From an uncultured Gammaproteobacteria bacterium (GTDB lineage Bacteria; Patescibacteriota; Patescibacteriia; 2-12-FULL-60-25): 64,000 nt of DNA. Below the pieces are notes generated by a model. That model was not told the DNA's origin and searched no databases. It saw nothing but the letters and a program-made list of their open reading frames with translations. Of the stretch, positions 40,177 to 63,021 are shown piece by piece; the first letter of the stretch is position 1, and each line of letters begins with the position of its first letter. Location of the stretch: the NCBI GenBank assembly GCA_964604275.1, contig CAZRYH010000002.1, positions 2,413 through 66,412 of the forward strand, written 5' to 3'. The translations under genes were made by a program, and so were the position numbers.

Positions 40177-40662
40177 TCAATAGCCGAGGCTGACGCCCAC
40201 GAGCAATATCTGCAAGGTCATCCAAAGGGAATACAATCCGGCGATTACAAAATTGATTCCAAAATACACAGTGATGATATTTATCGACTTCTTTGTCTTG
40301 GTTGTCAGCGCCCATCTCATTAGCACATAATCAATAAATGAAAAGACCGAAGCGCAGGCCACTAAAATGTAAAATCTGATATCAGCCGCGTCTTTACGAA
40401 AGTTCCAAAAGTTCATTGCTGTACCCGGGAAGAAAACCTTGATACCAACCCTGTATGCGATTGTTGCCAGCAGGGTCGGCACCCCAAAAAGCATATAACC
40501 ACCCACATTTACTACTGACTCGGATAATAACGACAGGATTTTAACAAAATTACCTGTCGATAAACCCAGTTTTAAAATGGCCGCTGCAAGAATGGGCGAG
40601 AACAATATGAGGACCGCCCAACCCAACAGTTTCAACCAATTTTTGGCTTTATATAAATCCAT
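40177..40662 (-). CDS. hypothetical multi-pass membrane protein
   Basis: ATG at 40662 (MDLYKAKNW). About 5 TM helices. TATAAT lies 11 nt upstream. Confidence 0.45.
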   Translation of the reverse strand: MDLYKAKNWLKLLGWAVLILFSPILAAAILKLGLSTGNFVKILSLLSESVVNVGGYMLFGVPTLLATIAYRVGIKVFFPGTAMNFWNFRKDAADIRFYILVACASVFSFIDYVLMRWALTTKTKKSINIITVYFGINFVIAGLYSLWMTLQILLVGVSLGY

Positions 40663-40710
40663 AGCTTTTTCAATTATAGCATAGGTCGGGGATCCTAATT
40701 GTCTCAAAAA

Positions 40711-40737
40711 CAGAAAACCACCCGAAGGTGGTTTCTG
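40711..40737 (-). terminator. strong terminator downstream of the AAA ATPase gene
   Basis: CAGAAACCACC-ttcg-GGTGGTTTTCTG followed by a T-run on the minus strand. Confidence 0.7.
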
Positions 40738-40846
40738 TTTGGTCGCTGTTTGACGCTTGTTGCGTTCAACGTGATGGTAGCCCAAGTTAGAGCGAATTGG
40801 AACCAATTATTGGTGGAAATGAAGGGATGGGAGAGGCTGGCAAAGG

Positions 40847-43477
40847 CTACTGCCTGATTTTATCGTTCGTCAGTGTAGCCATGGGCATTTGATTAGTCCT
40901 CCGTCGCATTCGTACCTGCTGAACCCACTTTTCAAGTTTTTCAATATCGTTTTTCACCTCACTTGGAATAGGAAAAGGTTCATACGCTGCAAGAGGCTGA
41001 TCATGACCGCCCTCCCATTTTGAAGATTTACGTATACCTTCACGAATAGTTGAGATGTCTGCTTCAGTTATATCATGAAGGTTCTTCATGAGCTTCGTGT
41101 CGACATTACGCCTGTAGCGCACTACTGCATTTTCAAAAAGAACTTCTTCCACGGCTCTTTCCCATGTTTGACGAAGGCGCGCATAGATACGAGTTACCAT
41201 TGGTTCGTATTCATTTTCTCCGCGCTCTTTATATATACGTTCGGCGCGGCTAAGTTCCTGTTGGAGAATATCAATCCTCTCCTTTGTGCCCTTCCCCTCC
41301 CAAGGGAGTCCTGCGTTGATATGACCAGCCAAAGAATCTCCACCTCGACTGATTGTCTGGGTGTCGCATAATACATCCAAAGTTTTCGCCTCCTCAATGA
41401 GAGCAGCAACAAAAACTATTTCATGTGTAAAAACTATCACCTGACGCTTTTTTGCCTCTTCGACTAATCTTTTTGCCACGTTGGTACGCCAGCGATGGTC
41501 TAAGGACGATACGGGGTCATCGAAGATGATTGCCGACGCATGAGTAGCGCCACGAACCTCTGCTAAAAATGCAGCCAAAGCGATACACCTGCTCTCGCCC
41601 TCACTGACAACCTTACCCAGTTCTGCCTTTGTTGCGTGCTTCAAAAACACCTGGTGATAAAGAACGCCTTTCTGACCTCCTGCAGGTCTTAGCTCTAGTT
41701 CCGGTGCGTTGAATCCCAACAGTCGCAATTCATCATCGAAGGCTACTGTTAGAGTGTCTGTCACGTATTTTTTGGTTAAGTTGGTACTAAAAGTTGTCAG
41801 TGCTCGAGTATTTGTAGATTTCAAACATTGTTCGTACGCATTCATACGACCCTTGCGATCAATTTCTGCGTTTATCTGTGGAAGGACCGCCTCGAGCATG
41901 GAGCGTGACTTCAATTCCAACAGCCGCTCTTCCGATCGTTTTCGCTCAACTGGATTTGATGCCTTTAATATTTCGGTTGCCCGCTCTTCAATGCTTGTCG
42001 CTAAATTTTCCAAAATTGTTGTTGGTGGTGCCAGAGAAATTGAAGTTGGGACAAGACTATCTCCGAATAGACTAGTGCGCGCTGATTCTGCAGCCTCTAA
42101 GAACCGCTTTGTGGCTTCGTAGCCGTCGGGATCAAGTACAGCTAAGTCATCGAGTGCATCTTTCACATTCCCCGGAACAAAAGCACGGCATTTCAAAGAG
42201 AATTCTTCAAAAATCTTCTGCTTTGCCACAGCATCTGCCTGAGCGGTGCCCTGCACAAACTCTTCGAGCTTCGTCAAACGCTCCTTCGTAGACGATTCCA
42301 TCTCTTGTTGACATAAAACGCATTTAGCGCCTTCTTCAATGTGCGGGAAGGCAAGACTAGGATAAGCGTTTTCTTTCGAATATACACGTGCAGACTCCCA
42401 CAATCCTCGCCATGCAGACGATTCAAGACCGGCGAGTGTGACCTGTCCACTAAATTTCTCGGCAGCGTTACGAGCGACCCTAGCTGCATTGGATGCCTCA
42501 TCGCGGAGTCTGACGAACTGCGCAACCGACGCATCTCCTAACGATACGCTTTGCTTTTTAAGTTCTTCCGTCAGGCGACGTAATCGCGACCCCTTAATTC
42601 TGTGGTCTGCTGCCTTTTTTTCCGGATTCTCCGATTTTGCAGTAGCAATCACTTCCGTCAATTTCTCAAGCTCAAGTTGTTCATCATGAGTCAACCTAGC
42701 TACGAGATCGACGTCTTCACGCTTTGTCAAAGCTGTCAGGTTGTTCAGAAATTGGCTTGCCTGAGTATTCTGAGGGATTGCTGGCCAAGTTACGACCTGA
42801 GTTTGGAGTAAATGGAGCTCATTGTTAAGACGCGACTCTATACGCGCACAGACCCCAGCGAGTCTGTCCATCACATCGAGGCCAAAAGGTCTGAAACGCA
42901 CTTCGGTTTTATCAGATACGTACACCTGCGCAGCAGATGAGTCGAACACGCTTACTGCTCCGAGATTAGCGGGTCCAGCTATACCATCCTTCCAGATATA
43001 TTCATCTTCGTCCCCAGCGACATCAACTATGAACTTAGCGGTTGGCGGTCCGGCAGGTTTCTCAGAGAGTGCGTTTGCGAGGATAGCGTCGTTGCTTCCG
43101 CGAGCTCTACAGGCTCTCTTTAGTATCCTTCCGTAACCCGACTTACCAGCACCATTATCTCCATAGACAATGGTGAGACCTGTTTTTCCAAACTTAATCG
43201 ACTCATTTGGTGCAAGCGCATTGACGTCAGAGACATGTGTGAGGGCAACAAGATTAACAGATCCTTTTTCTTGACCGGTTGGTAGATGGTCAATGATCAA
43301 CGGTGAAATCTCGATTGTAGTCGCGCTAAGACCTTGTGGTTTCTTGCAAAGTTCCGTCAACTCCTCGATATCAGTTTCTGTAATGTCAGTTTGGACAATA
43401 ATTCGTCGCAACGCATCGCGTATCCAATGATTCTCGAGAGAATTTGACCAGGCGAGTATTTCTTCTAGGACAGACAT
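40847..43477 (-). CDS. ABC/SMC-type AAA ATPase, PrrC/RloC-like (AAA_13-like) with coiled-coil insert
   Basis: Walker A GDNGAGKSG. Long helical insert carrying CVLC. Signature SEGESRC, Walker B IIFDDPVSSLD, H-loop VFTHE. About 190-aa C-terminal domain with RLRQTWERAVEE..GGHD. Confidence 0.65.
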   Translation of the reverse strand: MSVLEEILAWSNSLENHWIRDALRRIIVQTDITETDIEELTELCKKPQGLSATTIEISPLIIDHLPTGQEKGSVNLVALTHVSDVNALAPNESIKFGKTGLTIVYGDNGAGKSGYGRILKRACRARGSNDAILANALSEKPAGPPTAKFIVDVAGDEDEYIWKDGIAGPANLGAVSVFDSSAAQVYVSDKTEVRFRPFGLDVMDRLAGVCARIESRLNNELHLLQTQVVTWPAIPQNTQASQFLNNLTALTKREDVDLVARLTHDEQLELEKLTEVIATAKSENPEKKAADHRIKGSRLRRLTEELKKQSVSLGDASVAQFVRLRDEASNAARVARNAAEKFSGQVTLAGLESSAWRGLWESARVYSKENAYPSLAFPHIEEGAKCVLCQQEMESSTKERLTKLEEFVQGTAQADAVAKQKIFEEFSLKCRAFVPGNVKDALDDLAVLDPDGYEATKRFLEAAESARTSLFGDSLVPTSISLAPPTTILENLATSIEERATEILKASNPVERKRSEERLLELKSRSMLEAVLPQINAEIDRKGRMNAYEQCLKSTNTRALTTFSTNLTKKYVTDTLTVAFDDELRLLGFNAPELELRPAGGQKGVLYHQVFLKHATKAELGKVVSEGESRCIALAAFLAEVRGATHASAIIFDDPVSSLDHRWRTNVAKRLVEEAKKRQVIVFTHEIVFVAALIEEAKTLDVLCDTQTISRGGDSLAGHINAGLPWEGKGTKERIDILQQELSRAERIYKERGENEYEPMVTRIYARLRQTWERAVEEVLFENAVVRYRRNVDTKLMKNLHDITEADISTIREGIRKSSKWEGGHDQPLAAYEPFPIPSEVKNDIEKLEKWVQQVRMRRRTNQMPMATLTNDKIRQ

Positions 43478-43639
43478 AGTGACGAAAAATATTCAAAAGC
43501 AGCTCTTTATCCAAGCCATTCTGCCGCCTAGCTCCCCACTTGGCAAGTGTAGACAAAAACTGCATAAAATGGCACTATTAAGGCCATAAAGTTCGGCAAA
43601 ACGGTCGGCAACATCCGACGTTGATACGAAAACTAATGT

Positions 43640-46600
43640 ATGGAAAAAATCTTGGATAACAAAAAGGCAAAAGTAGTCGATGTGCTGCAAGATAGGATAC
43701 AGGCAGGTTCTAAGTTATCTGTCATTTCGGCGTATTTCACTATCTACGCGTTCGACAAGTTGCGGGAACAGCTTGAGCGCGTTGATAGCCTACGCTTCCT
43801 TTTTGTAGAGCCGACCTTCACTAAACAAAAAGAAGAGAAGCGTGAGTTCGTGATCAATCGCAACGAGCGTGAACGGTTCCTGTCAGGCACGGAGTTTGAA
43901 ATAAAACTAAGAAACGAATTAACCCAATCAAAGATCGCGAAGGAATGTGCGGAATGGATTCGTAACAAAGTTGAGTTTCGTTCGATGATGAAATCCGACG
44001 CTTCACAGACGCGCGCTATACATGTCAGTAATCCAAAAGAAGAATTTGTAGTTCAAGGGTCTATTGATTTCACAGCGACAGGTATCGGCGCGGTTCCGTC
44101 GCGGAAGCTCGATCTCAACATGTTCTCCAATGATCCGCAGGCGACAAGAGAGGTCCTGACTTGGTTTGATGAGATTTGGGACAACCCTGCTCTTGCAGAA
44201 GACGTAAAGGATCAGGTTCTCCAAAATATCCAGAACATCTACAAAGAAAACAGTCCGGAGTTCTTGTATTTTGTTACGCTATACAACGTCTTCCGGGAAT
44301 ATCTCGAAGAACTGACAGAGGAAAACATCCTTAAACCACGAACAGGCATCAAGGACACTACTGTATGGAACAAGCTCTACAAGTTTCAAAAAGACGGTGT
44401 CATGGGAGCGATTGCTAAACTGGAGAAGCACAACGGCTGCATCATCGCTGATAGTGTCGGGTTGGGGAAGACATTCGAAGGACTCGCTATCATAAAATAC
44501 TACGAGCTACGCAACTGCCGTGTGCTTGTTCTTGCCCCAAAAAAACTTCGTGATAACTGGACGCTCTATCGAGTGAACGACAGCAGGAACATCTTGGCGC
44601 AGGATCGTTTTGGCTATGATGTTTTGAACCATACCGATCTCAGCCGAACGAGTGGCACATCGGGCGACATCAATCTAGAGACGGTCAATTGGGGAAACTA
44701 CGACCTTGTCGTCATCGACGAATCTCATAACTTTCGTAATAACGATCCACGCAAAGACCGCAAAACACGCTATCGGAAGCTCATGGAGGATATCATTCGC
44801 AGCGGCGTGAAGACAAAAGTCTTGATGTTGTCTGCGACACCCGTAAACAATCGTTTGAATGACCTTAAAAACCAGATTGCCTTTATTACAGAAGGCGACG
44901 ACAACGCACTCAAAGAAGATGGTATACGTAGCATCAGCGATACGCTTCGTTCCGCGCAGCTCGCGTTCAACACGTGGCTCAAGCTCCCAACAGAAGGAAG
45001 AAAGATGGGCAACCTATTGTCGTCTTTGAACATCGACTATTTTAAGCTTTTGGACGCATTAACAATCGCACGTTCGCGAAAGCACATAGAGAAGTACTAC
45101 GATTTGACGGATGTCGGCAAGTTTCCTGTTAGGCGTAAGCCGATAAACCAAAAAACAGATATTGACACAGAGGGTAATTTTCCGACGTTTGACGACATCA
45201 ACGATTCGATAAGGCGTCTGAAGCTCGCTCTCTATTCTCCCTTTACATACGTGCGGCCAGACAGAATCGCCTACTATGAGAAAAAATATGATATTCAAGT
45301 ACAGGGCGGACGCTCTGTCTTTCGTCAGGAGGATCGCGAGCGCAACCTTGTGAACCTGATGCGCGTGAATATCTTGAAGCGTCTTGAAAGTTCCGTCTAT
45401 TCCTATGACTTGACCCTACAACGCATCCACGGACGTATTGTAGGAGTTCTCAAGCAAATTGATGATATCGAGCGTACCGGTGAAGACGAAGAACAATTCA
45501 ATCTCGATAATGTAACGCAAGAAGAGGCTGTAGACGACGAAAACCTAGAGCCAGAAGATTTGATGATCGGCACGACCGTGAAAGTTGCCTTCAAAGACCT
45601 GGATCTCGTTCGTTGGCGACAGGATCTCGTTGACGATGAAAAACGTCTGTCAGGTTTGATTACTGACTCCAAACAGGTTAAACCCAAACGCGACGCCAAG
45701 CTAGAAAGACTGAAGCAAGTCATTCAAGAGAAAATGGTGCATCCGATCAACCCAGGCAATCGAAAGGTCGTTATTTTTAGTGCGTTCGCAGATACAACAA
45801 ATTACCTGTACGAGCACATAGCCAAGTGGGCAAAGAATGAGTTTGGTGTTGAAAGCGCCCTGGTTACCGGTAGTGGACCGAACTTAAGCACGGCAAGTGA
45901 CATTCCTCACCAGTTCGGAGCCATTTTGACCAACTTCTCACCATTGTCAAAAGAACGAGACAAAGTCTACCCGAACATAAAAACGAATATCGACATACTG
46001 ATCGCAACCGATTGCGTATCTGAGGGCCAAAACCTTCAGGACTGTGATTGTTTGGTGAATTATGACATCCACTGGAACCCAGTGCGAATCATCCAACGAT
46101 TTGGTCGTATTGACCGTATCGGGTCAAAAAATGACAGTATCCAATTGATAAACTTTTGGCCAAACTTAGAGCTTGATGCGTACATCCGTCTGGAATCGCG
46201 CGTACGTGGCCGTATGATGCTCTTAAACTCATCCGCGACTGGTGAAGACGACATCATCAATGAAACGGAGACGGACATAATGAACGATATTGAATATCGA
46301 AAAAACCAGCTCATGAAACTTCAAGAAGAGGTGGTGGATCTGGAGGATATCTCCGGCAATCTGTCTATCACGGACCTGACCATGAACGATTTCAAAATGG
46401 ACTTGATGGAGTACATGAAAGACCACAAACAAGAGTTGGAAAACGCCCCCCTTGGTATGTACGCCGTTGCCGATCGCACGCGCATGACAGATAGCGAGCT
46501 TAAGCCCGGCGCGATTTTCGTGCTGAAGCAGGCAGCGTTCTCGGGGTTAGAGAGTAAGGAAGTTAACGCTCTCCACCCCTACTACCTCATCTGCATCGAA

Positions 46601-46909
46601 GAAGGCGGCATTATCCGGCATGGATACACGCAGGCAAAGTACATTCTGGATATGTACAAGAAGCTTTGCCGTGGCGTGGAAGGCGTAAATGCGGATTTGG
46701 TCGCTGCGTTTGATCGCACGACAAATGAAGCCAGTGATATGCGCCTCTACTCCTCCCTGCTCGAGACGGCCATCGCGAATATCATCGGTAAAAAACAAGA
46801 AAATGTTCTTACGTCGTTATTTTCCCTAGGTAGATCACTCATTGCGGAACAAGGCCGTTTATCTGGACTGGATGATTTTGAGCTCGTTTCCTTTCTCGTG
46901 ATTAAATGA
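43640..46909 (+). CDS. SNF2-family helicase with N-terminal PLD-like domain
   Basis: ADSVGLGKTFEG, VVIDESHNFRN, ATDCVSEGQNLQD, HWNPVRIIQRFGRIDRIGS. N-terminal SVISAYFTIYAF..LRFLF segment. Confidence 0.85.
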   Translation: MEKILDNKKAKVVDVLQDRIQAGSKLSVISAYFTIYAFDKLREQLERVDSLRFLFVEPTFTKQKEEKREFVINRNERERFLSGTEFEIKLRNELTQSKIAKECAEWIRNKVEFRSMMKSDASQTRAIHVSNPKEEFVVQGSIDFTATGIGAVPSRKLDLNMFSNDPQATREVLTWFDEIWDNPALAEDVKDQVLQNIQNIYKENSPEFLYFVTLYNVFREYLEELTEENILKPRTGIKDTTVWNKLYKFQKDGVMGAIAKLEKHNGCIIADSVGLGKTFEGLAIIKYYELRNCRVLVLAPKKLRDNWTLYRVNDSRNILAQDRFGYDVLNHTDLSRTSGTSGDINLETVNWGNYDLVVIDESHNFRNNDPRKDRKTRYRKLMEDIIRSGVKTKVLMLSATPVNNRLNDLKNQIAFITEGDDNALKEDGIRSISDTLRSAQLAFNTWLKLPTEGRKMGNLLSSLNIDYFKLLDALTIARSRKHIEKYYDLTDVGKFPVRRKPINQKTDIDTEGNFPTFDDINDSIRRLKLALYSPFTYVRPDRIAYYEKKYDIQVQGGRSVFRQEDRERNLVNLMRVNILKRLESSVYSYDLTLQRIHGRIVGVLKQIDDIERTGEDEEQFNLDNVTQEEAVDDENLEPEDLMIGTTVKVAFKDLDLVRWRQDLVDDEKRLSGLITDSKQVKPKRDAKLERLKQVIQEKMVHPINPGNRKVVIFSAFADTTNYLYEHIAKWAKNEFGVESALVTGSGPNLSTASDIPHQFGAILTNFSPLSKERDKVYPNIKTNIDILIATDCVSEGQNLQDCDCLVNYDIHWNPVRIIQRFGRIDRIGSKNDSIQLINFWPNLELDAYIRLESRVRGRMMLLNSSATGEDDIINETETDIMNDIEYRKNQLMKLQEEVVDLEDISGNLSITDLTMNDFKMDLMEYMKDHKQELENAPLGMYAVADRTRMTDSELKPGAIFVLKQAAFSGLESKEVNALHPYYLICIEEGGIIRHGYTQAKYILDMYKKLCRGVEGVNADLVAAFDRTTNEASDMRLYSSLLETAIANIIGKKQENVLTSLFSLGRSLIAEQGRLSGLDDFELVSFLVIK

Positions 46910-46910
46910 T

Positions 46911-47690
46911 ATGCGCAATCTTGTCATTGAAGCCCTTGGTCTCACGAAACATCCTGCTCTTCAAAATAGTCGTGTTCCAAAAGCAGCTTTTTTTGAGCAG
47001 GAAAGCTGTGACGCACAAGATCGAAGACTTCTGACGGCTGAGGTTGATGGTTTAACTTTACTTGCAGTCTTCAATGCTACAACGACCAACCTCGCCTCCT
47101 ACCAAGATGAAGATCACAATTACGAGGAGTTGTATCTGTTCTACGTTGAACTTCGGAGCGATACGCACGTACATCATATCGCCGAGTTGCTTCATGCGAT
47201 CATCCCCAATCCTTTACTGGTCGTGTTTGCTTATGAGGGGAAAATAGCCTTGTCTGCAGCCGAGAAACGACTGAACAAAAATGAACATGGCAAGACAATC
47301 GTCGAGGGTGTTATGACGAGCCCTTGGACGTCCTTAAAGCCAACCAATGACCAAGAACGTGCATTCCTCACTTCGATAGCCATAACAAACTGGTCTCACC
47401 ACGACATACTTTCATTTCTGCGTGATGCAGAACGCCTGATCTTAGCCTCCAATCTTGCGCTGATTGCCGGGCAGTTCACCTCTAGCCGCAAGTTGGATGT
47501 AATGGACGCAACCAGACTATTGCAAGAGCATGCTATGTGCACAGAAAGGATTAACGCTTTGGAAAGAGAAGAAAAAAACACCTCCCATTTTGGGGAACGA
47601 ATGCAAATCCACCTCACCGCGAATAACGAGCGTAAAAAACTAGAGTCGTGCAGACAAACCATTAAAACCCTCGTCCAATCCCTTACTTAA
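46911..47690 (+). CDS. DUF4391-like protein
   Basis: 259 aa, sits between a helicase and a methylase. IPNPLLVVFAYEGKIALSAAEKRLNK resembles the DUF4391 core. Called from memory, not from a search. Confidence 0.55.
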   Translation: MRNLVIEALGLTKHPALQNSRVPKAAFFEQESCDAQDRRLLTAEVDGLTLLAVFNATTTNLASYQDEDHNYEELYLFYVELRSDTHVHHIAELLHAIIPNPLLVVFAYEGKIALSAAEKRLNKNEHGKTIVEGVMTSPWTSLKPTNDQERAFLTSIAITNWSHHDILSFLRDAERLILASNLALIAGQFTSSRKLDVMDATRLLQEHAMCTERINALEREEKNTSHFGERMQIHLTANNERKKLESCRQTIKTLVQSLT

Positions 47691-47695
47691 AAACT

Positions 47696-49474
47696 ATGCA
47701 AAAACTCACTCTAAATACGCATGACCTTATTGCGGACAATATCGAACAACTGAAGTCATTGTTTCCAGAGGCATTCGTCGAGGGAAAAGTGGACTTTGAC
47801 ATGCTGCGGACACTGCTTGGAGATGCGGTGGAGAAGGACAAGGAACGATTTGGCTTGTCGTGGCCAGGAAAGCAAGATGCAATCAAGATGGCACTGGTGC
47901 AAAATAGCGGTACCCTGCGACCGAAGAAGGAGGAGAGCAAAGACTGGGACACAACAGGTAATCTTTTTATCGAAGGAGATAATCTTGAGGTCTTACGCGT
48001 ATTACTCGAGACGTATCGTGGAAAGGTGAAGATGATTTATATCGACCCGCCGTATAACACGGGCAATGATTTTGTGTATAAGGACGACTTTGCGGACAAT
48101 GTGGCAAGCTATAAAGAGAAAGCCGGTGAAAACATGAAATCCAATGCGGCGACTGCAGGACGCTATCACTCTAACTGGTTGTCCATGATGTATCCGAGGT
48201 TGAAGTTAGCGAAGGAGTTTTTGAAGGATGACGGTGCAATTTTTGTGAGTATTGATGACAATGAATGTAAAAATTTGCGAAGTATGATGGATGAAATTTT
48301 TGGTGAAGAGAACTGGGCAGCTACATTCGCATGGAGAAAGACGGATAACCAACCTAATATTGGAAACGTCGCCAGAGTAAAGGAATACATTGTTTGTTAT
48401 TCTCACTCAATTAAATGTTTGAGATTGAACAAGATGCGTCTCACGGATCGCGCGAAGAGAGAATATAGATATGAAGATACAAACGGAATATTTAGAAGGA
48501 CGATACTTTTAGATAAAACCAGGGGCAGGCATTACTACGACCTCAAAACACCAACCGGCAAAATATTAGGGGGTCCTTGGATGATAAGGCTTGAGGAGTT
48601 TCTAGAACTCGAAAAAGATAATCAAATATATTGGACAAGAGGTGGAGAAGAGCAACCTTACGGGAAATTGCACTTATCTAATAGTGAGGGTCAAATAACA
48701 AACGATTTTCTTGGTATTGAATACGGCACAAATCAACAAGGTAGTTTGGAATGTGAAGAGTTGTTCGGGAGCAGGGTATTTGATTTTCCCAAGCCGGTTT
48801 CATTAATCAAACATTTCGCAACAGTTGCTACGTCAGATAATGACATCATTCTAGACTTTTTTGCTGGATCTGGAACCACGGCACAAGCGACTTTGGAGCT
48901 AAATATCGAAGACAGCGCTAATCGTAAGTTTATTCTTATTCAACTACCAGAAATAACTCCAGAAGCAGGTGAAGCACGAAAGGCCGGATTTAAGACTATC
49001 GCTGATATTACAAAAGAACGCATCAGGCGTGCAGGCGAGAAGATTAAAAAGGAGAATACAGAGAAACCGCTTGATGTCGGCTTCAAAGTCTTCACCCTCG
49101 ATACCTCAAACCTCGCTCAATGGGACGAAAAAACACGCGACCTCCAAAATAGTCTTCTAAACTATACTCAAGGCATCAAGACGGATCGAGCACCGGAAGA
49201 CGTGTTGTATGAAGTCTTGCTCAAATACGGCATTGATCTGACGACACCTATTGCCACGGAATCAATCAACGGGAAACAAGTCTACAATGTCGGAGAAGGT
49301 TATCTGCTTGTTTGCTTGGAGAAAGATGTTGATCTGGCCACAATTGAGGCCATTGCCGCAAAGAAGCCATCCCGTGTCGTTTTTTTGGACAAAGGTTTTG
49401 CTGACGACGTCGTAAAACTGAATGCCGAGCAGACGCTTAAGAAAGCGGGGGTTGAGGACCTGCGTGTTTTGTAG
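47696..49474 (+). CDS. N6-adenine DNA methyltransferase (type III Mod-like, beta class)
   Basis: IYIDPPYNTGNDF (motif IV) comes before DFFAGSGTTAQA (motif I). Confidence 0.9.
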   Translation: MQKLTLNTHDLIADNIEQLKSLFPEAFVEGKVDFDMLRTLLGDAVEKDKERFGLSWPGKQDAIKMALVQNSGTLRPKKEESKDWDTTGNLFIEGDNLEVLRVLLETYRGKVKMIYIDPPYNTGNDFVYKDDFADNVASYKEKAGENMKSNAATAGRYHSNWLSMMYPRLKLAKEFLKDDGAIFVSIDDNECKNLRSMMDEIFGEENWAATFAWRKTDNQPNIGNVARVKEYIVCYSHSIKCLRLNKMRLTDRAKREYRYEDTNGIFRRTILLDKTRGRHYYDLKTPTGKILGGPWMIRLEEFLELEKDNQIYWTRGGEEQPYGKLHLSNSEGQITNDFLGIEYGTNQQGSLECEELFGSRVFDFPKPVSLIKHFATVATSDNDIILDFFAGSGTTAQATLELNIEDSANRKFILIQLPEITPEAGEARKAGFKTIADITKERIRRAGEKIKKENTEKPLDVGFKVFTLDTSNLAQWDEKTRDLQNSLLNYTQGIKTDRAPEDVLYEVLLKYGIDLTTPIATESINGKQVYNVGEGYLLVCLEKDVDLATIEAIAAKKPSRVVFLDKGFADDVVKLNAEQTLKKAGVEDLRVL

Positions 49475-49477
49475 CGT

Positions 49478-52471
49478 ATGTTGAAACTAAAATTTGACGC
49501 GCATCAAAAGTTCCAGCAGGACGCAGTCGAAGCGATTGCGGATATTTTTGACGGCCAATCGCTACGCCATTCCGCCTTCACAGCCACAAAAGGTCGTGGC
49601 CTCTTTGGAGTCATGACTGAGCTCGGCTACGGCAACAAGCTAGACCTCATTGAAGAAGATCTATTGAAGAACGTTATACGCATTCAGGATCGTAACAAAC
49701 TTAAACGCAGCATGCGTATCGTAGATGATCTCTATGGCGTTCCAAACTTCGCTGTGGAGATGGAGACAGGGACGGGCAAGACGTATGCCTACACGCGTAC
49801 GATATTTGAATTGAACCGACGTTATGGATTCTCCAAGTTCATCATCGTCGTTCCGAGCGTCGCCATTCGTGAAGGCGTAAAAAAGTCACTTGAGATTACA
49901 GAAACGCATTTTCGTGAACTTTTTCCAGACCAAGCCTATGACCACTTCGTCTATGACTCGACCAAGCTGAGTCGTGTGCGAGACTTCGCCACGAACAGCG
50001 CGATCCAAATCATGATTATCAACATCGACGCATTTCGCAAGGGATTCACCGGCGACGAGGGCGACACCAAGGCAAACGTAATCCACAAGGAGCAAGATGC
50101 TCTAAGCGGACGTAGGCCGATCGAGTTCATTCAAGCGACAAACCCAATCGTTATCATCGACGAGCCACAATCTGTCGACAACACAGACAAGGCAAAAGAG
50201 TCCATCAAGTCGCTCAATCCGCTTTGCATTTTGCGCTACTCTGCAACACATCGCGATGCGTATAATCTGATGTACAAACTCGGCCCAGTAGACGCCTGCG
50301 AACAAAAGCTCGTGAAGAGAATAGAAGTCCTTGCCATGGGGAGCGCTCCAGCCGGACCGGATATGCAGCTGGTGAGCGTCTCTGAAAAAGCTGGAAACTA
50401 CACCGCAAAGCTTGAGATTGGATGTGTAAATAAAGGCGACGGCGGTATTACTGCCAAGGCTATCACGGTCAATGCAGGAAAAAAGAGCGACCTTTTTCTT
50501 CTCTCAGGTGAAAACCCCGCCTTCAAGGGCTATCGTGTTTCAAGCGTATCTATTGCACCCGGGAATGAATACGTTGAAGTCAATGACACGATCGTCGTCA
50601 AACTCCAACAAGCGACAAATGACGACGAGCTTAAACGCGCGCAGATACGCTCGACTATCGAAGCTCATCTTGAAAAAGAAGTGCACTTGCTCGATAAAGG
50701 CATCAAGGTCCTATCGTTGTTTTTCATTGATCGCGTTGCAAACTATCGTAATCATGAAGCGGCTAATCTCAAAGGGAAGTATGCGCGTATATTTGAAGAA
50801 GAATATCTTAAAGTTGTAGCCATCCCCAAATATCAAACCCTTTTTACCACTGACTTTGTTCGTCAGTATGCTTTGACTCATGATGTCGAAAAAGCGCACG
50901 ATGGTTATTTCTCCAAGGACAAAAAAGGGAAGGTGAAAGATACTTCCGAAGGGAGAACGACTCAGGACGACCAGTCGATATACGACCTGATCATGAAAAA
51001 TAAAGAACTATTGCTAAGCTTTGACTCGCCTCTGCGTTTTATCTTCTCCCACTCTGCCCTGCGAGAGGGTTGGGATAATCCGAACGTATTTCAAATTTGT
51101 ACGCTTGTCGAAACGCAAGATGCCATGACGAAGCGACAAAAAATTGGTCGTGGATTACGTCTTCCGGTAAACCAACTGGGGGACAGGATCGTGGACGATC
51201 AAATCAATATCCTGACCGTTGTAGCCAATGAAAGCTATGAGCAGTTCGCGGAGACCTTGCAACACGAGATCGAGAGCGAAACGAACACCCGATTCGGCGT
51301 CATCACCGAGCGACTGTTCGAAGATATTCTGGTTGGTACCGAAGACACCGCGCATAGACTCGGCTATGACGCTTCAAAACGCATCCACGATCACCTACTC
51401 CAACAAGGACTTCTAGATCGTCATGATAAGGCGACAAAGGAGCTTAAGGATGCTATCGCAAGAAATGACCTCCCTGTGCCGCAAGAGTTCGTACCGCTGA
51501 AAATGGCCATTCTAGAAGAGATTGAGAAGACAACGAAACGTTTGCAGATTTTTAACGCTGGAGACAAAGAGCATGTATCTGTACACAAACAGGTTCTGCT
51601 CGATCCAAACTTCCGCGAGCTGTGGGATCGCATCAAGTGGAAGACGGTTTTTCGTTTGGATTTTGACGTGGACGGCCTAATCCAAGACTGCATCGACTCC
51701 TTAAAAGATCGCGGGAACATGCCGGAACTGACACCGAATCCCATTATCGCAAAGTGGGTCAACATCAATATCACCAATCAGGGCATTACAGCGTCCGAGC
51801 CGCATCGCATACGGACATTCGTACGCGATAACTACGAGAATCAAAACCTGCCAAATCTTCTTGAATACATTGAACGTTTCACGCGCATCAAAAAGGATAC
51901 GATTGCCAAGATTTTGGTCGGATCCGGACGTCTTGAGGAGTGTTATGTGAATCCACAGGTCTTTATGGAGACGGTCATTTCGATAATCAACAGAAACAAG
52001 ACCAAGCGCATCACAGACGGCATTCGTTACGAACGCATCGGAGATGAGTCTTTTTTTGCCCAAGAACTCTTTGAGGACGAAGAATTGCTTGGCTACCTAA
52101 AGATGAATGCCCTATCTGTCGACAAGAGCGTCTATTCTCACGTCTTGTACGACTCTGATATTGAAAGACAGTTCGCTCAACGCCTCAATGATGACGATGA
52201 TGTAAAGATGTTCATAAAGCTCCCAAGTTGGTTCAAAGTTGAAACACCACTTGGTACATACAATCCTGATTGGGCTGTCGTTCTAGAAAAGAATGGTATC
52301 GAAAAACTCTATTTTATCCTTGAAACAAAGGGTAGTATCATCGCAGAAGATCTTCGCTTCTTCGAACAAAAGAAGATCGAATGTGGCCGTAAACATTTTG
52401 CGGCTATCGGAGACGGCGTGACGTTTGATGTCGCCGAATCCTATACGCAGTGGCGAAGCAAATTGATGTAA
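49478..52471 (+). CDS. type III restriction enzyme Res-like helicase-nuclease
   Basis: METGTGKTY, IIDEPQS, helicase C-terminal motifs. C-terminal PD-(D/E)xK-like YNPDWAVV..YFILETKG. Confidence 0.85.
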   Translation: MLKLKFDAHQKFQQDAVEAIADIFDGQSLRHSAFTATKGRGLFGVMTELGYGNKLDLIEEDLLKNVIRIQDRNKLKRSMRIVDDLYGVPNFAVEMETGTGKTYAYTRTIFELNRRYGFSKFIIVVPSVAIREGVKKSLEITETHFRELFPDQAYDHFVYDSTKLSRVRDFATNSAIQIMIINIDAFRKGFTGDEGDTKANVIHKEQDALSGRRPIEFIQATNPIVIIDEPQSVDNTDKAKESIKSLNPLCILRYSATHRDAYNLMYKLGPVDACEQKLVKRIEVLAMGSAPAGPDMQLVSVSEKAGNYTAKLEIGCVNKGDGGITAKAITVNAGKKSDLFLLSGENPAFKGYRVSSVSIAPGNEYVEVNDTIVVKLQQATNDDELKRAQIRSTIEAHLEKEVHLLDKGIKVLSLFFIDRVANYRNHEAANLKGKYARIFEEEYLKVVAIPKYQTLFTTDFVRQYALTHDVEKAHDGYFSKDKKGKVKDTSEGRTTQDDQSIYDLIMKNKELLLSFDSPLRFIFSHSALREGWDNPNVFQICTLVETQDAMTKRQKIGRGLRLPVNQLGDRIVDDQINILTVVANESYEQFAETLQHEIESETNTRFGVITERLFEDILVGTEDTAHRLGYDASKRIHDHLLQQGLLDRHDKATKELKDAIARNDLPVPQEFVPLKMAILEEIEKTTKRLQIFNAGDKEHVSVHKQVLLDPNFRELWDRIKWKTVFRLDFDVDGLIQDCIDSLKDRGNMPELTPNPIIAKWVNINITNQGITASEPHRIRTFVRDNYENQNLPNLLEYIERFTRIKKDTIAKILVGSGRLEECYVNPQVFMETVISIINRNKTKRITDGIRYERIGDESFFAQELFEDEELLGYLKMNALSVDKSVYSHVLYDSDIERQFAQRLNDDDDVKMFIKLPSWFKVETPLGTYNPDWAVVLEKNGIEKLYFILETKGSIIAEDLRFFEQKKIECGRKHFAAIGDGVTFDVAESYTQWRSKLM

Positions 52472-53181: not shown

Positions 53182-53385
53182 ATGATAAAAGTTGACCAAG
53201 ACTCCATAGATCCGATTAACCGCGCGAGCAAAATAACCTGCAAATGTGAGCACTGCTCCTCAATAATAACAATCCATGTGACTAACGGATTCGACGTGGA
53301 CGACAAGGGTGAATGTATTGATGCAGGGGTAATCGAGGGCCTGATGAAGGACCTATCCTGCGAGGCCTGTGGGAGCAAATTCTAA
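53182..53385 (+). CDS. small Cys-containing protein (possible zinc ribbon)
   Basis: 67 aa with CKCEHC ... CEACG. The stop codon lies 7 nt before the next ATG. Confidence 0.4.
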   Translation: MIKVDQDSIDPINRASKITCKCEHCSSIITIHVTNGFDVDDKGECIDAGVIEGLMKDLSCEACGSKF

Positions 53386-53392
53386 CAAAAAT

Positions 53393-54301
53393 ATGCCTGA
53401 CAAAGCTTGTCCGTTATGTAAGAATGCCGCGATCATAGAGAATCAGTTTCCGAAGTCAACCATATTCGTGGAATGCGACCGATGTGGAAGATACGAAATA
53501 AGTACAATGTTGAATGCAAGCGAGGTACTTAATAAATACAGGACGGCGCTTTCTGGACTATGTCGTGAATTAACCGAGACGCATCAGGATCTTCCCGTCT
53601 TAACCACCTCTCTTGATGAGCTTGTTAAGAATTTTCCAGTACCGAATATGGATGATTTGGAGGCTAAGCTTGAAAAGCTACTGGCCGCCATCAAGCGTAA
53701 ATCAAAATACTTTGGATATCTTGTAGAGCTTGATTATGACAAGGATTATCCCTTAGCGTATGCCCAGAACGGCGACGAGCTCTTTGCTTTCATTAATCAG
53801 CTAAGAGCCATGGGGCTACTCGAGCTCAAGAGTGAAGATAGCCAAACGAAATTCGTATCCCTGTCAGGTGAGGGATGGAAGCAACTGTCTAGGCTAACAA
53901 AAACAATAAAACAGAAGCAGGGTTTCGTGGCCGCCTGGTTCGATCCAAGCACCGACGAAAGCATTTCAACCATAAAACAAGCAATTGAGTCCTGTGGCTT
54001 TGCTCCTATGTGCATAAAGACGGAGCACTTCAAAGAGACGATAATGGATAAGGCCTTAGGGGAACTACAAAACAGTAGGTTTGTCGTTGTGGACCTAACA
54101 GGCTCACGCCCTAGTGTATTTTTTGAGGCGGGTTACGCCCGAGCCCTCAACATCGAGACTATTTTTGTCTATAAGGAAGATGAAGCTGAAAAACAAAAAT
54201 TAGAATTTTACGTTAAGCATTACCAGTGCCACAAATACAATGATATGGACGAGTTAGGCGAGATTATTAAAAATGCGATCAGCTCAAGAATTAAAGATTA
54301 A
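53393..54301 (+). CDS. Zn-ribbon / winged-helix / NDT- or TIR-like Rossmann domain protein
   Basis: CPLCKN..CDRCGR. FINQLRAMGLLELK..SLSGEGW (wHTH-like). C-terminal GFVAAWFD..FVVVDLTGSRPSVFFEAGYARAL. Confidence 0.55.
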   Translation: MPDKACPLCKNAAIIENQFPKSTIFVECDRCGRYEISTMLNASEVLNKYRTALSGLCRELTETHQDLPVLTTSLDELVKNFPVPNMDDLEAKLEKLLAAIKRKSKYFGYLVELDYDKDYPLAYAQNGDELFAFINQLRAMGLLELKSEDSQTKFVSLSGEGWKQLSRLTKTIKQKQGFVAAWFDPSTDESISTIKQAIESCGFAPMCIKTEHFKETIMDKALGELQNSRFVVVDLTGSRPSVFFEAGYARALNIETIFVYKEDEAEKQKLEFYVKHYQCHKYNDMDELGEIIKNAISSRIKD

Positions 54302-56685: not shown

Positions 56686-58071
56686 TTATTGGACAACTAT
56701 CAAACGACTTCGCGCTCTTGTATGAGCGACGTAAGAGATTCTGCGCTCCTCCAGCTTGTCATCAGGAGCATCTAAGCCAAGTGAAACGTTGAGGCGACTT
56801 AGGACATCCTTCCTATAAGGTTGCTTGGCATACAGAACCGTATCTGCCTCCATACCTTTAGCCCGATGAACGGTCATGAAGTTGGCAAAGGGATATTCCT
56901 TCTCCCAAGAGGCTAAGTCTACGCCATAGAGGGAATTAGACCGCGACAATACCAAACATGGCCGCCCAAGGGAGGCCAGGAACTGACGGACGCAAACTCC
57001 CCCGAGGCCACCCTTAATAAACTCGACTTCACCGCCTGATTCGTTGGTTAAACCACCGGCTCCCATGCCTCGCATCTGCTTGTTCGCGTATTCGACTATC
57101 TCCCTTCCGCTACGATAGTTAGTGAGCAGGCTTACACGAGCAGAATCACCGAAACGTCCCTCGAAGTTGCGGAAGTAGTCCAAGTTCGATCCAGCAAAGC
57201 CATTGATGGCCTGCCAATCGTCGCCAACACAATACAAGCCCATGGAGGAGTTTCTGTCCCTAAGTTTCTGGACTAAGCGGAAGAATGGACTGGAGAAGTC
57301 TTGGAATTCGTCGATACACAGGAGCTTGATTGAGCCGAAACGGACTGATTGAGAGCCTAAGCGGATTATCTGGCCGTCTTTAATGCTATCGACACCCGTA
57401 AGTGCTGCTTCGATCAGGTCATCGAAATCAATCCGGCCACTGTCCGCAAGGGCCTGCTGGTATCGCTCAAAGACATCAACGGCTAGAGTAGCCAGATTTC
57501 CTTTGCCTTTAGCCCGTTCGTTGGCTTGCTCGGGGGTGAGATTCAGGTGCTTACACTTTGAGATTAAGGCCAAGATGGAATCTCTTAGTCCGTCCTCTTT
57601 GAAGCCATATGGTCTGAGGCAATCCTCTACGATACGTTCCCTTGCCTGCCCGAAGACTAAAGTCCCACGCGCAGGCTGCACGATCGAATGCGCCAAGGCG
57701 TGGAAGGTCGAAGATGGGATCAATTTGGCTCCATATCTATCCATTCTTCGGCCTAAGCCCAAGGCGGCATTACGATTAAACGAGAGTGCTAGGATGTCTG
57801 TCGCCTTAGTGCCTTTATCGAGCTCTAACGCTGCTCTCAAGGCGATGACGGCGGTCTTGCCGGCCCCAGCTCTCGCCGTTACCAGAACATTCTTGTTAGG
57901 GACGCTAAGAGCATCCAGCTTCTCCTTACTCGGGGAAAAACCTGTGATGGACTCAAGCCATATTCTTAAGCGATCGTTATAGGGACCAGTCGGGACCGGC
58001 TGCTCTTTGGCTCTCTTTTGCTCCGCCCACCCAAACGCAAGGACAATGAGGATGATGATTAAGATGGACAT
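56686..58071 (-). CDS. UvrD/Rep-like SF1 helicase with N-terminal hydrophobic anchor
   Basis: TARAGAGKTA, CIDEFQDFS, TVHRAKGMEAD, YVAHTRARS. The N-terminus MSILIIILIVLAFGW is TM-like. Confidence 0.7.
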   Translation of the reverse strand: MSILIIILIVLAFGWAEQKRAKEQPVPTGPYNDRLRIWLESITGFSPSKEKLDALSVPNKNVLVTARAGAGKTAVIALRAALELDKGTKATDILALSFNRNAALGLGRRMDRYGAKLIPSSTFHALAHSIVQPARGTLVFGQARERIVEDCLRPYGFKEDGLRDSILALISKCKHLNLTPEQANERAKGKGNLATLAVDVFERYQQALADSGRIDFDDLIEAALTGVDSIKDGQIIRLGSQSVRFGSIKLLCIDEFQDFSSPFFRLVQKLRDRNSSMGLYCVGDDWQAINGFAGSNLDYFRNFEGRFGDSARVSLLTNYRSGREIVEYANKQMRGMGAGGLTNESGGEVEFIKGGLGGVCVRQFLASLGRPCLVLSRSNSLYGVDLASWEKEYPFANFMTVHRAKGMEADTVLYAKQPYRKDVLSRLNVSLGLDAPDDKLEERRISYVAHTRARSRLIVVQ

Positions 58072-61159: not shown

Positions 61160-62020
61160 ATGGAAAAGAATCAAAACGCAGAGTGGGCAAAGCAATACTT
61201 AAATCATTATTGGCCGGCAATTCCTCTGGGACAAAAACCAGACCTTTCATGGAAGCAAGCGCTGGTTCCCTGGCAGTCTTACGAAAATATGTTGCCGACG
61301 GAAGCAGATATTGCGTCCTGGTGGAACCAGTGGCCATTTGCAAGGGTCGGCATAATCACGGGGAAGATATCAAAATTAGTGGTCGTCGACATCGACCCAA
61401 GGCATGGCGGAAACCCGAATGAGCTCGACTTACCTCCCACCCTTATCGCCTCAACTGGCGGTGGCGGCTGGCACTACTACTATCGCTATCCGGAGCATAT
61501 GCGTATCAAAAGCCAGTCCGACATCAAAAAAGGGGTTGATATCAGGGCCGAGGGTGGGTTGGTTGTGGCCCCACCGTCAGAACATATCTCTGGAAAGAAA
61601 TACGAATGGCAAGATGAGTTCGATCCATCAATGATCGCTCCATGTCCGGATTGGATTATCGAAATAAACAAAGACATGGCTATTGCGCCATCGAGGATCC
61701 AATCTGCTTCGCCTTTAATTTACGGACGAGATCCGCTAAGCAGGGCTCTAAACGCCCCAATCAATGAAGTCATATGTTATGCGGCAAAAGCAGTTGGCGT
61801 GAGCGTGTCGTTTCGGCAAAACGGCAACAGAACGTGCCAAATAATCGAGGACGGAAGGGTTACATCAGGTTTTATCTCATCGCAAGGGAACTACTGTTAT
61901 TCAGCATCCGGCAAACTGCGCCGTGGGAACCCGATAAATGTCGCTGAATATTACATAAATGTTGTGGGAGGACGTAAGTATAGCCGCTCACAAATAATAA
62001 AAACTATCAACAACTTATGA
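61160..62020 (+). CDS. bifunctional DNA primase/polymerase (PrimPol) domain protein
   Basis: LVVVDIDPRHGG, GGGGWHYYY, DIRAEGGLVVAPPS motifs. Confidence 0.85.
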   Translation: MEKNQNAEWAKQYLNHYWPAIPLGQKPDLSWKQALVPWQSYENMLPTEADIASWWNQWPFARVGIITGKISKLVVVDIDPRHGGNPNELDLPPTLIASTGGGGWHYYYRYPEHMRIKSQSDIKKGVDIRAEGGLVVAPPSEHISGKKYEWQDEFDPSMIAPCPDWIIEINKDMAIAPSRIQSASPLIYGRDPLSRALNAPINEVICYAAKAVGVSVSFRQNGNRTCQIIEDGRVTSGFISSQGNYCYSASGKLRRGNPINVAEYYINVVGGRKYSRSQIIKTINNL

Positions 62021-63021
62021 ATTCAGAGTGTGAATTTCCGATTATCAAGTATAAAGAGCTCTGTTCTATGAATTTGCCAAAAATCAATTATTTAGTGGAG
62101 GGGTTAATTCCAGAAATAGGTTTGACCATGTTTCAAGGTCACCCTGGCACGAACAAATCTTGGTTTGCCTACTATTTAGCCTATTGTGCGGCTAACGGAT
62201 TACCCTTATTGAATACATACAAGACAAAAAAGGCTTCTGTGTTACTAGTATGCCCCGATGACTACCTACCGACCATGCAAGAAAGATTGGCGATCTTAGG
62301 CCTTGATCCCAATGTCGATATTTCGGTGCTAAATCCTGAGAAAATCCTTGACGTAGGTTCGCCGGAATTCGACCGGTTTCTGGATTACATAGAAAAAGAA
62401 AAACACGAGGTCGTGATCATAGATACCTTACGAAACATTCATCGCGCTGATGAAAACGATTCAAGTCAAATGGATATTATCATGCAGAGACTCCGTCTAC
62501 TGGCCAAGAATCGGTGCGTAGTCCTCATCCACCACCTTAATAAAAATACTTTGGTCAACACAGTTGTTGCTTCAAGGGGCTCCACGGTTATACCCGCCGC
62601 CCTGATTTCAGGGTTCAATTTCAAAAAAAATGGAGAGTACCGCTTAAGCCTCACGCAGTTCAAGAATAAAATTGGCAGGCTTCATCCCGAATTACGGCTG
62701 GAATTCAATGAGCAGATGCGAGGCATCGACATATTTAATCTCGATCTATCAAGACCCAAAGAAGAAGTCCAAAGCTCTATCTTGAAAGTGATTAAGGAAG
62801 CCTATGAAGAAAACCCCACACCGGAGTTAACCAAAAATGAATTCAAAGATCTTCTTCATGGAAGTGGCAATGGTGCATATTCCAAGAATGAAATTGATAA
62901 GGCTTATTCAGAATTGATTAAACAGGGCTTCCTTTGCCCGGACGGCATCCGTAGACAGGCTAATCGCATCTGCTACATCAAGAACCCATGCACCAGGACG
63001 ACCGAAACGGAAGCCACTTAG
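62017..63021 (+). CDS. RecA-fold AAA_25/RepA-like ATPase
   Basis: GHPGTNKSWFA (Walker A), VVIIDTLRNIH (Walker B). ATGA overlap with the PrimPol gene. Confidence 0.7.
   Translation: MNSECEFPIIKYKELCSMNLPKINYLVEGLIPEIGLTMFQGHPGTNKSWFAYYLAYCAANGLPLLNTYKTKKASVLLVCPDDYLPTMQERLAILGLDPNVDISVLNPEKILDVGSPEFDRFLDYIEKEKHEVVIIDTLRNIHRADENDSSQMDIIMQRLRLLAKNRCVVLIHHLNKNTLVNTVVASRGSTVIPAALISGFNFKKNGEYRLSLTQFKNKIGRLHPELRLEFNEQMRGIDIFNLDLSRPKEEVQSSILKVIKEAYEENPTPELTKNEFKDLLHGSGNGAYSKNEIDKAYSELIKQGFLCPDGIRRQANRICYIKNPCTRTTETEAT

Follow-up and report, generated by a model that had tools for sequence, protein, structure and literature searches.

The window analyzed here is a 64,000-nucleotide stretch of contig CAZRYH010000002.1 (assembly GCA_964604275.1), and our subject is a reverse-strand gene within it that encodes an ATPase of 876 amino acids (aa). 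Its open reading frame (ORF) starts with ATG, and the locus is at the left end of a stretch of low GC (~0.44-0.47 vs ~0.53-0.59), which begins at ~40 kb, right after housekeeping genes. Across a gap of 162 bp, the gene stands head-to-head with a SNF2 helicase gene, the first of an operon of restriction-modification (R-M) genes. An earlier sequence-only reading of this DNA had described this pairing with a SNF2/Mod/Res operon, and the gene order agrees, except that the operon also holds a DUF4391 gene. Because a promoter-like site lies 5' of the ATPase gene and a strong hairpin terminator lies ~110 nt past its stop codon, the gene looks like a monocistronic, stand-alone transcription unit. The coordinates of these features are collected in Table 1.

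Table 1 Features of the ATPase gene, its product and the divergent operon, in window coordinates (residue numbers refer to the 876-aa protein).
Feature	Coordinates	Strand	Basis
876-aa RloC-superfamily ABC ATPase gene (PADLOC PDC-S06, sub-model PDLC04891)	40847..43477	-	ORF, Pfam, PADLOC, alignment
N-terminal three-helix domain, residues 1-70, family-specific	43268..43477	-	alignment, AF2 model
ABC head N-lobe, residues 74-195	42893..43258	-	alignment, AF2 model, fold search
Walker A, G106-DNGAGKS-113	43139-43162	-	alignment
Helical (coiled-coil) insert, residues 200-586, ~390 aa	41720..42880	-	AF2 helices; second arm collinear with RloC insert
CxxC zinc-hook motif, C386-V-L-C389, both Cys invariant	42311..42322	-	alignment; pairs with RloC CPFC in hhalign
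ABC head C-lobe, residues 594-722	41312..41698	-	Pfam, alignment, hhalign
All-alpha HEPN-like domain, residues 724-866, putative RNase effector	40880..41308	-	AF2 models, PDB fold matches, HMM, conservation
Helix motif, R769-QTW-E773-RAV-E777-E778	41144..41173	-	conservation
Histidine motif, K817-S-S819-K820-WEGG-H825-D826, helix end	41000..41029	-	conservation; compared with SO_3166 R97/H102
Promoter-like site 5' of the ATPase ATG	43518..43546	-	consensus match only
Bidirectional hairpin terminator, strong, 9-bp stem then T run	40714..40735	.	~110 nt past the ATPase stop
Divergent neighbour operon	43640..52471	+	Pfam, PADLOC; context, functional coupling to the ATPase inferred only
SNF2 helicase, 1089 aa	43640-46909	+	Pfam, PADLOC
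DUF4391 protein	46911-47690	+	Pfam
Type III Mod	47696-49474	+	full-length PADLOC type III model match
Type III Res	49478-52471	+	full-length PADLOC type III model match

Homology searches returned 3,486 relatives of the ATPase, the closest at 81% identity, with full-length members typically ~860 aa long. We aligned 40 homologs, which show strong conservation over the full length, and used the alignment for a full-length AlphaFold (AF2) model (mean pLDDT 84, on the predicted local distance difference test). All motifs named in the sequence-only reading for this 876-aa ORF are present in the sequence, the alignment and the model, and they are invariant or nearly so in the 40 homologs. Besides Walker A, they comprise the signature S625-EGES-629, the Walker B/D-loop I650-IFDDPVSSLD-660 and the H-loop T684-H685 of an ATP-binding cassette (ABC) ATPase. 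The ATPase head, which is Rad50-like, is split by a coiled-coil insert, and the CVLC motif lies at the apex of this insert, near its middle.

This arrangement recalls RloC, a wobble-nucleotide-excising, zinc-responsive anticodon nuclease that has been characterised in Geobacillus kaustophilus and Acinetobacter baylyi (PMC2610378). RloC was defined by ABC motifs, a coiled-coil insert with a CXXC zinc hook, a C-proximal Arg-X3-Glu-X36-52-His triad and a length of 658-897 aa (Davidov & Kaufmann 2008, PMC2610378). The window protein fits all four features by pattern, its triad being R769-X3-E773-X51-H825 in a C-terminal helical domain, as in RloC. For a direct comparison, we took the 738-aa protein of E. 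coli APEC O1 (entry #51 of the 2008 ortholog table, from a P2-like prophage) as the RloC reference and built a family profile from its relatives; 'wobble nucleotide-excising tRNase' is the name that sources give to several of them. With hhalign, 321 collinear columns of the window family and this RloC profile could be aligned, at a probability of 98.2% (E = 3e-14). The alignment places CxxC onto CxxC and runs through the second coiled-coil arm, the signature, the Walker B/D-loop and the H-loop to residue 722. The idiosyncratic Walker B/D-loop 'DDPxSSLD' is common to both families.

Database models gave the same grouping. The checks against PF13166 and PADLOC that the sequence-only reading had proposed both came out positive: Pfam AAA_13 (PF13166) scored 43.4 bits against a cut-off of 36, as AAA_21 likewise exceeded its own, and the PADLOC PDC-S06 model PDLC04891 (858 positions) matched end to end, over residues 1-860 (E = 6e-219). 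PDC-S06 is a computational phage-defence candidate from a guilt-by-embedding screen (Payne et al. 2024 preprint), and the literature we found gives no mechanism for it. It comprises 13 sub-models in which classic RloC and the sub-clade of the window protein are mixed. Genuine RloC proteins match the sister PDC-S06 sub-models at ~1e-250, and in them the PADLOC PrrC model reaches through the nuclease domain. Therefore, PDC-S06 amounts to the RloC superfamily, within which the window protein falls into a distinct branch (sub-models 04891/04893).

One relative ties this branch to the original definition. Swit_4992 (881 aa, encoded on plasmid pSWIT02 beside a carbamoyltransferase gene) is entry #30 of Table S1 in the 2008 RloC ortholog set, an inclusion that concerns this relative and not the window protein itself. 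Its N-terminal domain (E = 3e-15) and its C-terminal one (E = 2e-26) are those of the window sub-clade, and it does not carry the classic RloC nuclease domain; therefore the branch had already been counted as RloC by pattern in 2008. Sequence comparison thus confirms the window protein as a member of the RloC superfamily, a family already catalogued as RloC sensu lato and PDC-S06.

The N-terminal 70 residues are one of two places where the branch departs from its better known relatives. As a result of this extra domain, Walker A starts at residue 106 in the window protein and at ~30 in RloC. Its invariant residues are D21, L23-R24-R25, K45 and G49-L50, and it has no Pfam match at E <= 10; Pfam scans of the isolated insert at this threshold likewise yielded nothing beyond scattered noise. 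Its hidden Markov model (HMM), which recovers Swit_4992, does not match the APEC O1 RloC; as judged by these profiles, the domain is absent from classic RloC.

Resemblance to DNA-repair ATPases exists at the level of the fold only. A full-length fold search returned the heads of SMC, cohesin, Rad50, RecN, JetC, LmuB and retron-PtuA, matches that do not discriminate between hypotheses, and a PDB sequence search with the whole protein gave only generic ABC-lobe matches. A housekeeping SMC/Rad50/RecN-type repair ATPase without a defence role would account for the SMC, cohesin, Rad50 and RecN heads and for a Pfam SMC_N match of 37.1 bits, under its cut-off of 40, but we regard it as very improbable. 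The sequence groups with AAA_13, PDC-S06 and RloC and not with SMC. No SbcD/Mre11-like gene neighbours the ATPase gene in the window; its setting there is a low-GC island that also holds R-M genes and others resembling defence genes. The family is patchy, plasmid-borne and island-borne, and it carries an additional HEPN-like domain.

PrrC is a more distant comparison. This tRNA-Lys anticodon nuclease of the EcoprrI type Ic locus shares with the window protein an ABC ATPase and a C-terminal R-x3-E...H domain, together with the concept of a latent RNase that guards an R-M system. However, PrrC has ~400 aa and neither coiled-coil nor zinc hook, and it resides inside type Ic hsd loci, whereas the window gene lies on the opposite strand from a type III/SNF2 operon (some of its relatives do lie inside type I loci). 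The PADLOC PrrC model aligns only residues 624-700 of the window protein (E = 2.8e-6), which is within the ATPase part. The sequence-only reading had named PrrC and RloC in one breath; the likeness to RloC holds, and that to PrrC is poor.

The second departure from RloC is the C-terminal domain. The sequence-only reading had placed an R..E...H-type domain in the last ~190 aa, where the strings 'ARLRQTWERAVEE' (residues 767-779) and 'GGHD' (823-826) are indeed found, but the region proved to be composite: ~40 aa of ATPase strands, to about residue 722, are followed by a helical domain of ~140 aa and a disordered tail that ends the protein. In the AF2 model, the helices span residues 731-752, 754-780, 794-799, 805-822 and 838-863. 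Five positions (R769, E773, R787, H825 and P836) show 100% conservation, both in 257 closer members and in 76 that are more divergent, and so the motif pattern is far beyond chance. E777 and E778, on the long helix preceding the histidine motif, are highly conserved. A basic residue, [KR]817, sits 5-7 residues before the histidine across the family (KCSNYAHD, RCSALLHS; 5 in members with a short loop) and is followed by C, S or T. In the window protein, K817 is 7 residues before H825, and K820-x4-H is present as well; a K or R at 820 occurs in 68% of the close and 21% of the divergent members. A serine stands 6 residues before the histidine in the window protein and directly before it in Swit_4992.

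HEPN domains are four-helix up-down bundles of about 100-140 aa. Residues 724-866 were also modelled on their own with AlphaFold (pLDDT 81, predicted template modelling score 0.76), and this model was compared with the PDB. The best matches were nearly all HEPN domains (AF_0298, ST0689, HepT, SO_3166, TT1696, sacsin and Csm6), with probabilities of 0.9-0.99 and TM-scores of 0.5-0.6, but with E-values of only 0.1-1. The HEPN toxins HepT/SO_3166 (PDB 5yep, 7bxo) matched best, in near-global alignments. They have in common with the window domain a histidine just past a helix end, a basic residue 4-7 positions upstream of it and, on a helix that comes earlier, an acidic residue that is invariant; H825 has domain index 102, the same index as the catalytic H102 of SO_3166. 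The toxins have an MNT antitoxin partner, whereas the window domain is fused to an ABC ATPase. PrrC's and RloC's nuclease domains are themselves placed in the HEPN superfamily by the literature. From the predicted fold and the conserved residues, we interpret the C-terminal domain as probably a divergent HEPN-type RNase.

Only this fold class and the motif pattern connect the domain to the anticodon nuclease domain. The RloC motifs N.MRNILE.YF, NR.SHS, HY..MM and Y..LW are absent from the C-terminal domain of the sub-clade, which has LR.TWER..EE, RFR and K.S...GHD instead. A PDB sequence search with the C-terminal profile found nothing, and a comparison with a viral structure library gave nothing informative. 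An exhaustive C-terminal HMM search for bridging architectures found none among the 150 matches listed, all of which belong to the same family. The domain may be a descendant of the RloC nuclease domain or may only look like it.

These results leave room for an active HEPN nuclease with a target other than tRNA, such as mRNA, rRNA or another RNA, which it would cut indiscriminately (compare the toxins RnlA/LsoA and HepT). Such a protein would be functionally distinct from RloC, with a convergent R-x3-E...H pattern. The missing profile similarity to the anticodon nuclease domain is consistent with this, as are the absence of Y..LW and HY..MM and the fold matches, of which the best are MNT-associated HepT/SO_3166-type toxins and none is a tRNase structure. 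We nevertheless hold it to be rather unlikely: the overall architecture and the triad spacing equal those of RloC, and HEPN RNases often cleave tRNA, according to the HEPN literature. The data here fit either kind of substrate.

The sub-clade is widespread. Among 1.84 billion clusters at 50% identity, the C-terminal profile matched 2,471 representatives at E <= 0.001 and 1,858 at E <= 1e-10, and the domain is at the C-terminus of a ~860-aa protein in every full-length match listed. Full-length copies were found on plasmids in 142 records. We retrieved 80 genomic loci from many phyla. No neighbour was conserved across 79 loci, and so the effector must be in cis. R-M genes (type I or Mod/Res/SNF2) lie within 10 kb of the ATPase homolog in 21 of these 79 loci and within two genes in 17, in line with the R-M linkage that the sequence-only reading had expected of the family. 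The linked loci are of both kinds, with type I hsdM/S/R in 11 and N6_N4 Mod, ResIII-nuclease or SNF2 genes in 10. Linkage is commoner here than in the 2008 RloC survey, where 8 of 72 orthologs were at an R-M locus; in both families the system is a single gene that resides in a mobile or defence island and is at times linked to type I/III R-M genes. Almost all linked R-M genes (42/43) are co-directional with the ATPase homolog, which means that the ATPase is embedded in those R-M operons. In some loci (L012 and L075) the order is PrrC-like, hsdM-hsdS-ATPase-...-hsdR, and these relatives thus occupy PrrC's position. R-M proximity is typical of the family, and the head-to-head divergence in the window, which the sequence-only reading had pointed out, is an exception and incidental.

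Recurrent neighbours include RhuM-family and Ymh-type HEPN proteins, RmuC, DUF2130, integrases and recombinases; RhuM-family and Ymh-type HEPN neighbours have also been reported for PrrC/RloC contexts. In three unrelated genomes (L011, L025 and L065), an AAA ATPase and a subtilase (Peptidase_S8) form a pair directly beside the ATPase homolog, and in L025 this pair lies between the SNF2 gene and the Mod/Res genes. We also considered the ATPase as a general subunit of the adjacent R-M/SNF2 operon and rejected this, as most homologs have no R-M neighbour and the linked ones pair with different R-M types.

The same loci bear on a further alternative, in which the ATPase is only a sensor or scaffold with a non-catalytic C-terminal module and the killing is done by the R-M/SNF2 neighbours or by an effector elsewhere (compare AriA-AriB, PtuA-PtuB and LmuB-LmuA). 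The related ABC ATPases of PARIS, Septu and Lamassu do use separate effectors, some HEPN domains are non-catalytic binding modules according to the HEPN literature, and the frequent co-directional embedding in R-M operons would suit such a role. We consider it doubtful, since no neighbour is conserved, most loci lack a nearby R-M gene, the window gene is divergent from its R-M operon with a terminator of its own, and invariant R, E, R and H residues within so small a helical domain are what a catalytic site, and not a scaffold, typically shows.

On balance, and by analogy with RloC and PrrC, we think it reasonably likely that the window protein is a single-polypeptide defence protein of the RloC superfamily that acts as an abortive-infection RNase, with tRNA anticodon loops as its most likely target. 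It may dimerise by means of its zinc hook and ATPase heads, and ATPase control would hold the RNase latent. A disturbance caused by phage might then be sensed by the ATPase and accessory domains; DNA breaks, foreign DNA ends and the inactivation of a co-resident R-M enzyme are examples, and a link to the neighbouring type III R-M/SNF2 operon could be part of this. A conformational change would free a metal-independent RNase site in the C-terminal domain, made up of R769, E773, R787, [KR]817 and H825. The RNase would cut cellular RNA, most likely in tRNA anticodon loops, so that translation stops and the infection is aborted.

Several results weigh against this interpretation, most of them concerning the C-terminal domain. 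The sequence-only reading had proposed to compare this domain with PrrC/RloC anticodon nuclease profiles, and the outcome was negative: hhalign gave 0.2% probability against the RloC nuclease profile with each of two profiles (local and global modes, repeated with a 108-sequence profile whose number of effective sequences was 4.8). Reciprocal HMM searches between the window C-terminal domain and the RloC nuclease domain found no match. No Pfam family, HEPN families included, matched the C-terminal domain of the window protein or of any of 32 members at E <= 10, and in the window protein the coverage of both the PADLOC PrrC model and AAA_13 ends at the ATPase. The E-values of the HEPN fold matches are weak, and four-helix bundles are common. 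The sequence fits the canonical HEPN motif, Rx4-6H with a polar residue after R, only loosely: K or R is the basic residue, the spacing of 5-7 is inside the Rx4-6H range or slightly past it, and a polar residue directly behind the basic one is lacking. Finally, source names for the sub-clade are 'AAA family ATPase', 'EcfA2' or similar and never RloC. Of the two observations that the sequence-only reading had named as counting against itself, a C-terminal domain without similarity to anticodon nuclease domains is what we found at the sequence level, and a grouping of the ATPase with SMC/RecN-type proteins is not. Its observation of the gene and its motifs stands, and its interpretation stands in part: the protein belongs to the RloC superfamily, but homology of its effector to the anticodon nuclease domain is not demonstrable.

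A more far-reaching interpretation is that the ~860-aa sub-clade is no true group of RloC orthologs but a separate lineage that combines an RloC-like ATPase/hook chassis with an unrelated or convergent HEPN-like effector and a new N-terminal sensor. It might then be a dedicated guard of restriction complexes, type I as well as type III/SNF2, that reads their functional state, and its substrate or trigger would be unlike RloC's DNA-break-activated excision of the tRNA wobble nucleotide. We offer this as speculation and think it improbable.

Routine annotation fails to recognise the window branch as RloC. Joint Genome Institute (JGI) names for members of the sub-clade are 'EcfA2' or 'hemin transport ATPase', whereas classic RloC relatives bear the name 'wobble nucleotide-excising tRNase'. 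The classic RloC-type gene of E. coli APEC O1 (925932-928148; L081:45932-48148) occupies an accessory hotspot of a P2-like prophage, between a replication endonuclease gene and a portal gene, and its RefSeq name is only 'AAA family ATPase'. On pSWIT02 (L082, 107623-113298), genes for an HD phosphohydrolase and an 'Abi family protein' lie just downstream of Swit_4992. Further along are a metallophosphoesterase and then another 881-aa hypothetical protein, possibly an SbcCD-like pair. This stretch suggests a plasmid-borne defence cluster.

In the window, the divergent SNF2/DUF4391/Mod/Res genes are a four-gene R-M-like module and not a plain type III system. The SNF2 helicase has a full-length match to PADLOC C3a139 'HKD+Snf2' (3e-143), and Pfam detected no PLD domain in it. 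On the other side of the ATPase gene, a 209-aa ORF (40177-40806(-)) was considered as a partner and rejected: none of the 80 related loci carries it, and its 5' part holds the ATPase terminator. This ORF has a TTG start and no family match. An alternative ORF of ~161 aa inside it, with an ATG near 40662, is predicted to have 4-5 hydrophobic segments. Farther into the low-GC island, a 310-aa ORF (53369-54301(+)) has a weak N-terminal Lar-type zinc-ribbon match, and its C-terminal region has a PADLOC 'Effector TIR' match (2.8e-8) and a sub-threshold match to nucleoside 2-deoxyribosyltransferase; it may be another stand-alone defence gene. Past the R-M genes, among many ORFs that match no family, are genes for a helicase of UvrD-like type (56686-58071(-)), for a Prim-Pol (61160-62020(+)) and for an AAA_25 ATPase (62017-63021(+)); this region has the look of a replication module from an integrated mobile element. 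We searched for tRNA genes at the island edge and found none in the 64-kb window.

A standard defence-finder run would detect the window gene as PDC-S06, and so the gene leaves the picture of bacterial immunity unchanged. A modest use of it is to clarify that PDC-S06 is effectively the RloC superfamily. The branch itself is very large: it counts no fewer than 1,858 clusters at 50% identity, reaches across many phyla and has 142 plasmid copies, with R-M genes within 10 kb in about a quarter of the loci. What sets it apart from the RloC proteins that have been studied is precisely its effector domain and the added N-terminal domain. If its members are RNases, K112, C386/C389, R769, E773, R787 and H825 would be clear mutational targets, and the paradigm of anticodon nucleases as a back-up to restriction, now a matter of rare PrrC-type cases, would come to cover a widespread family.

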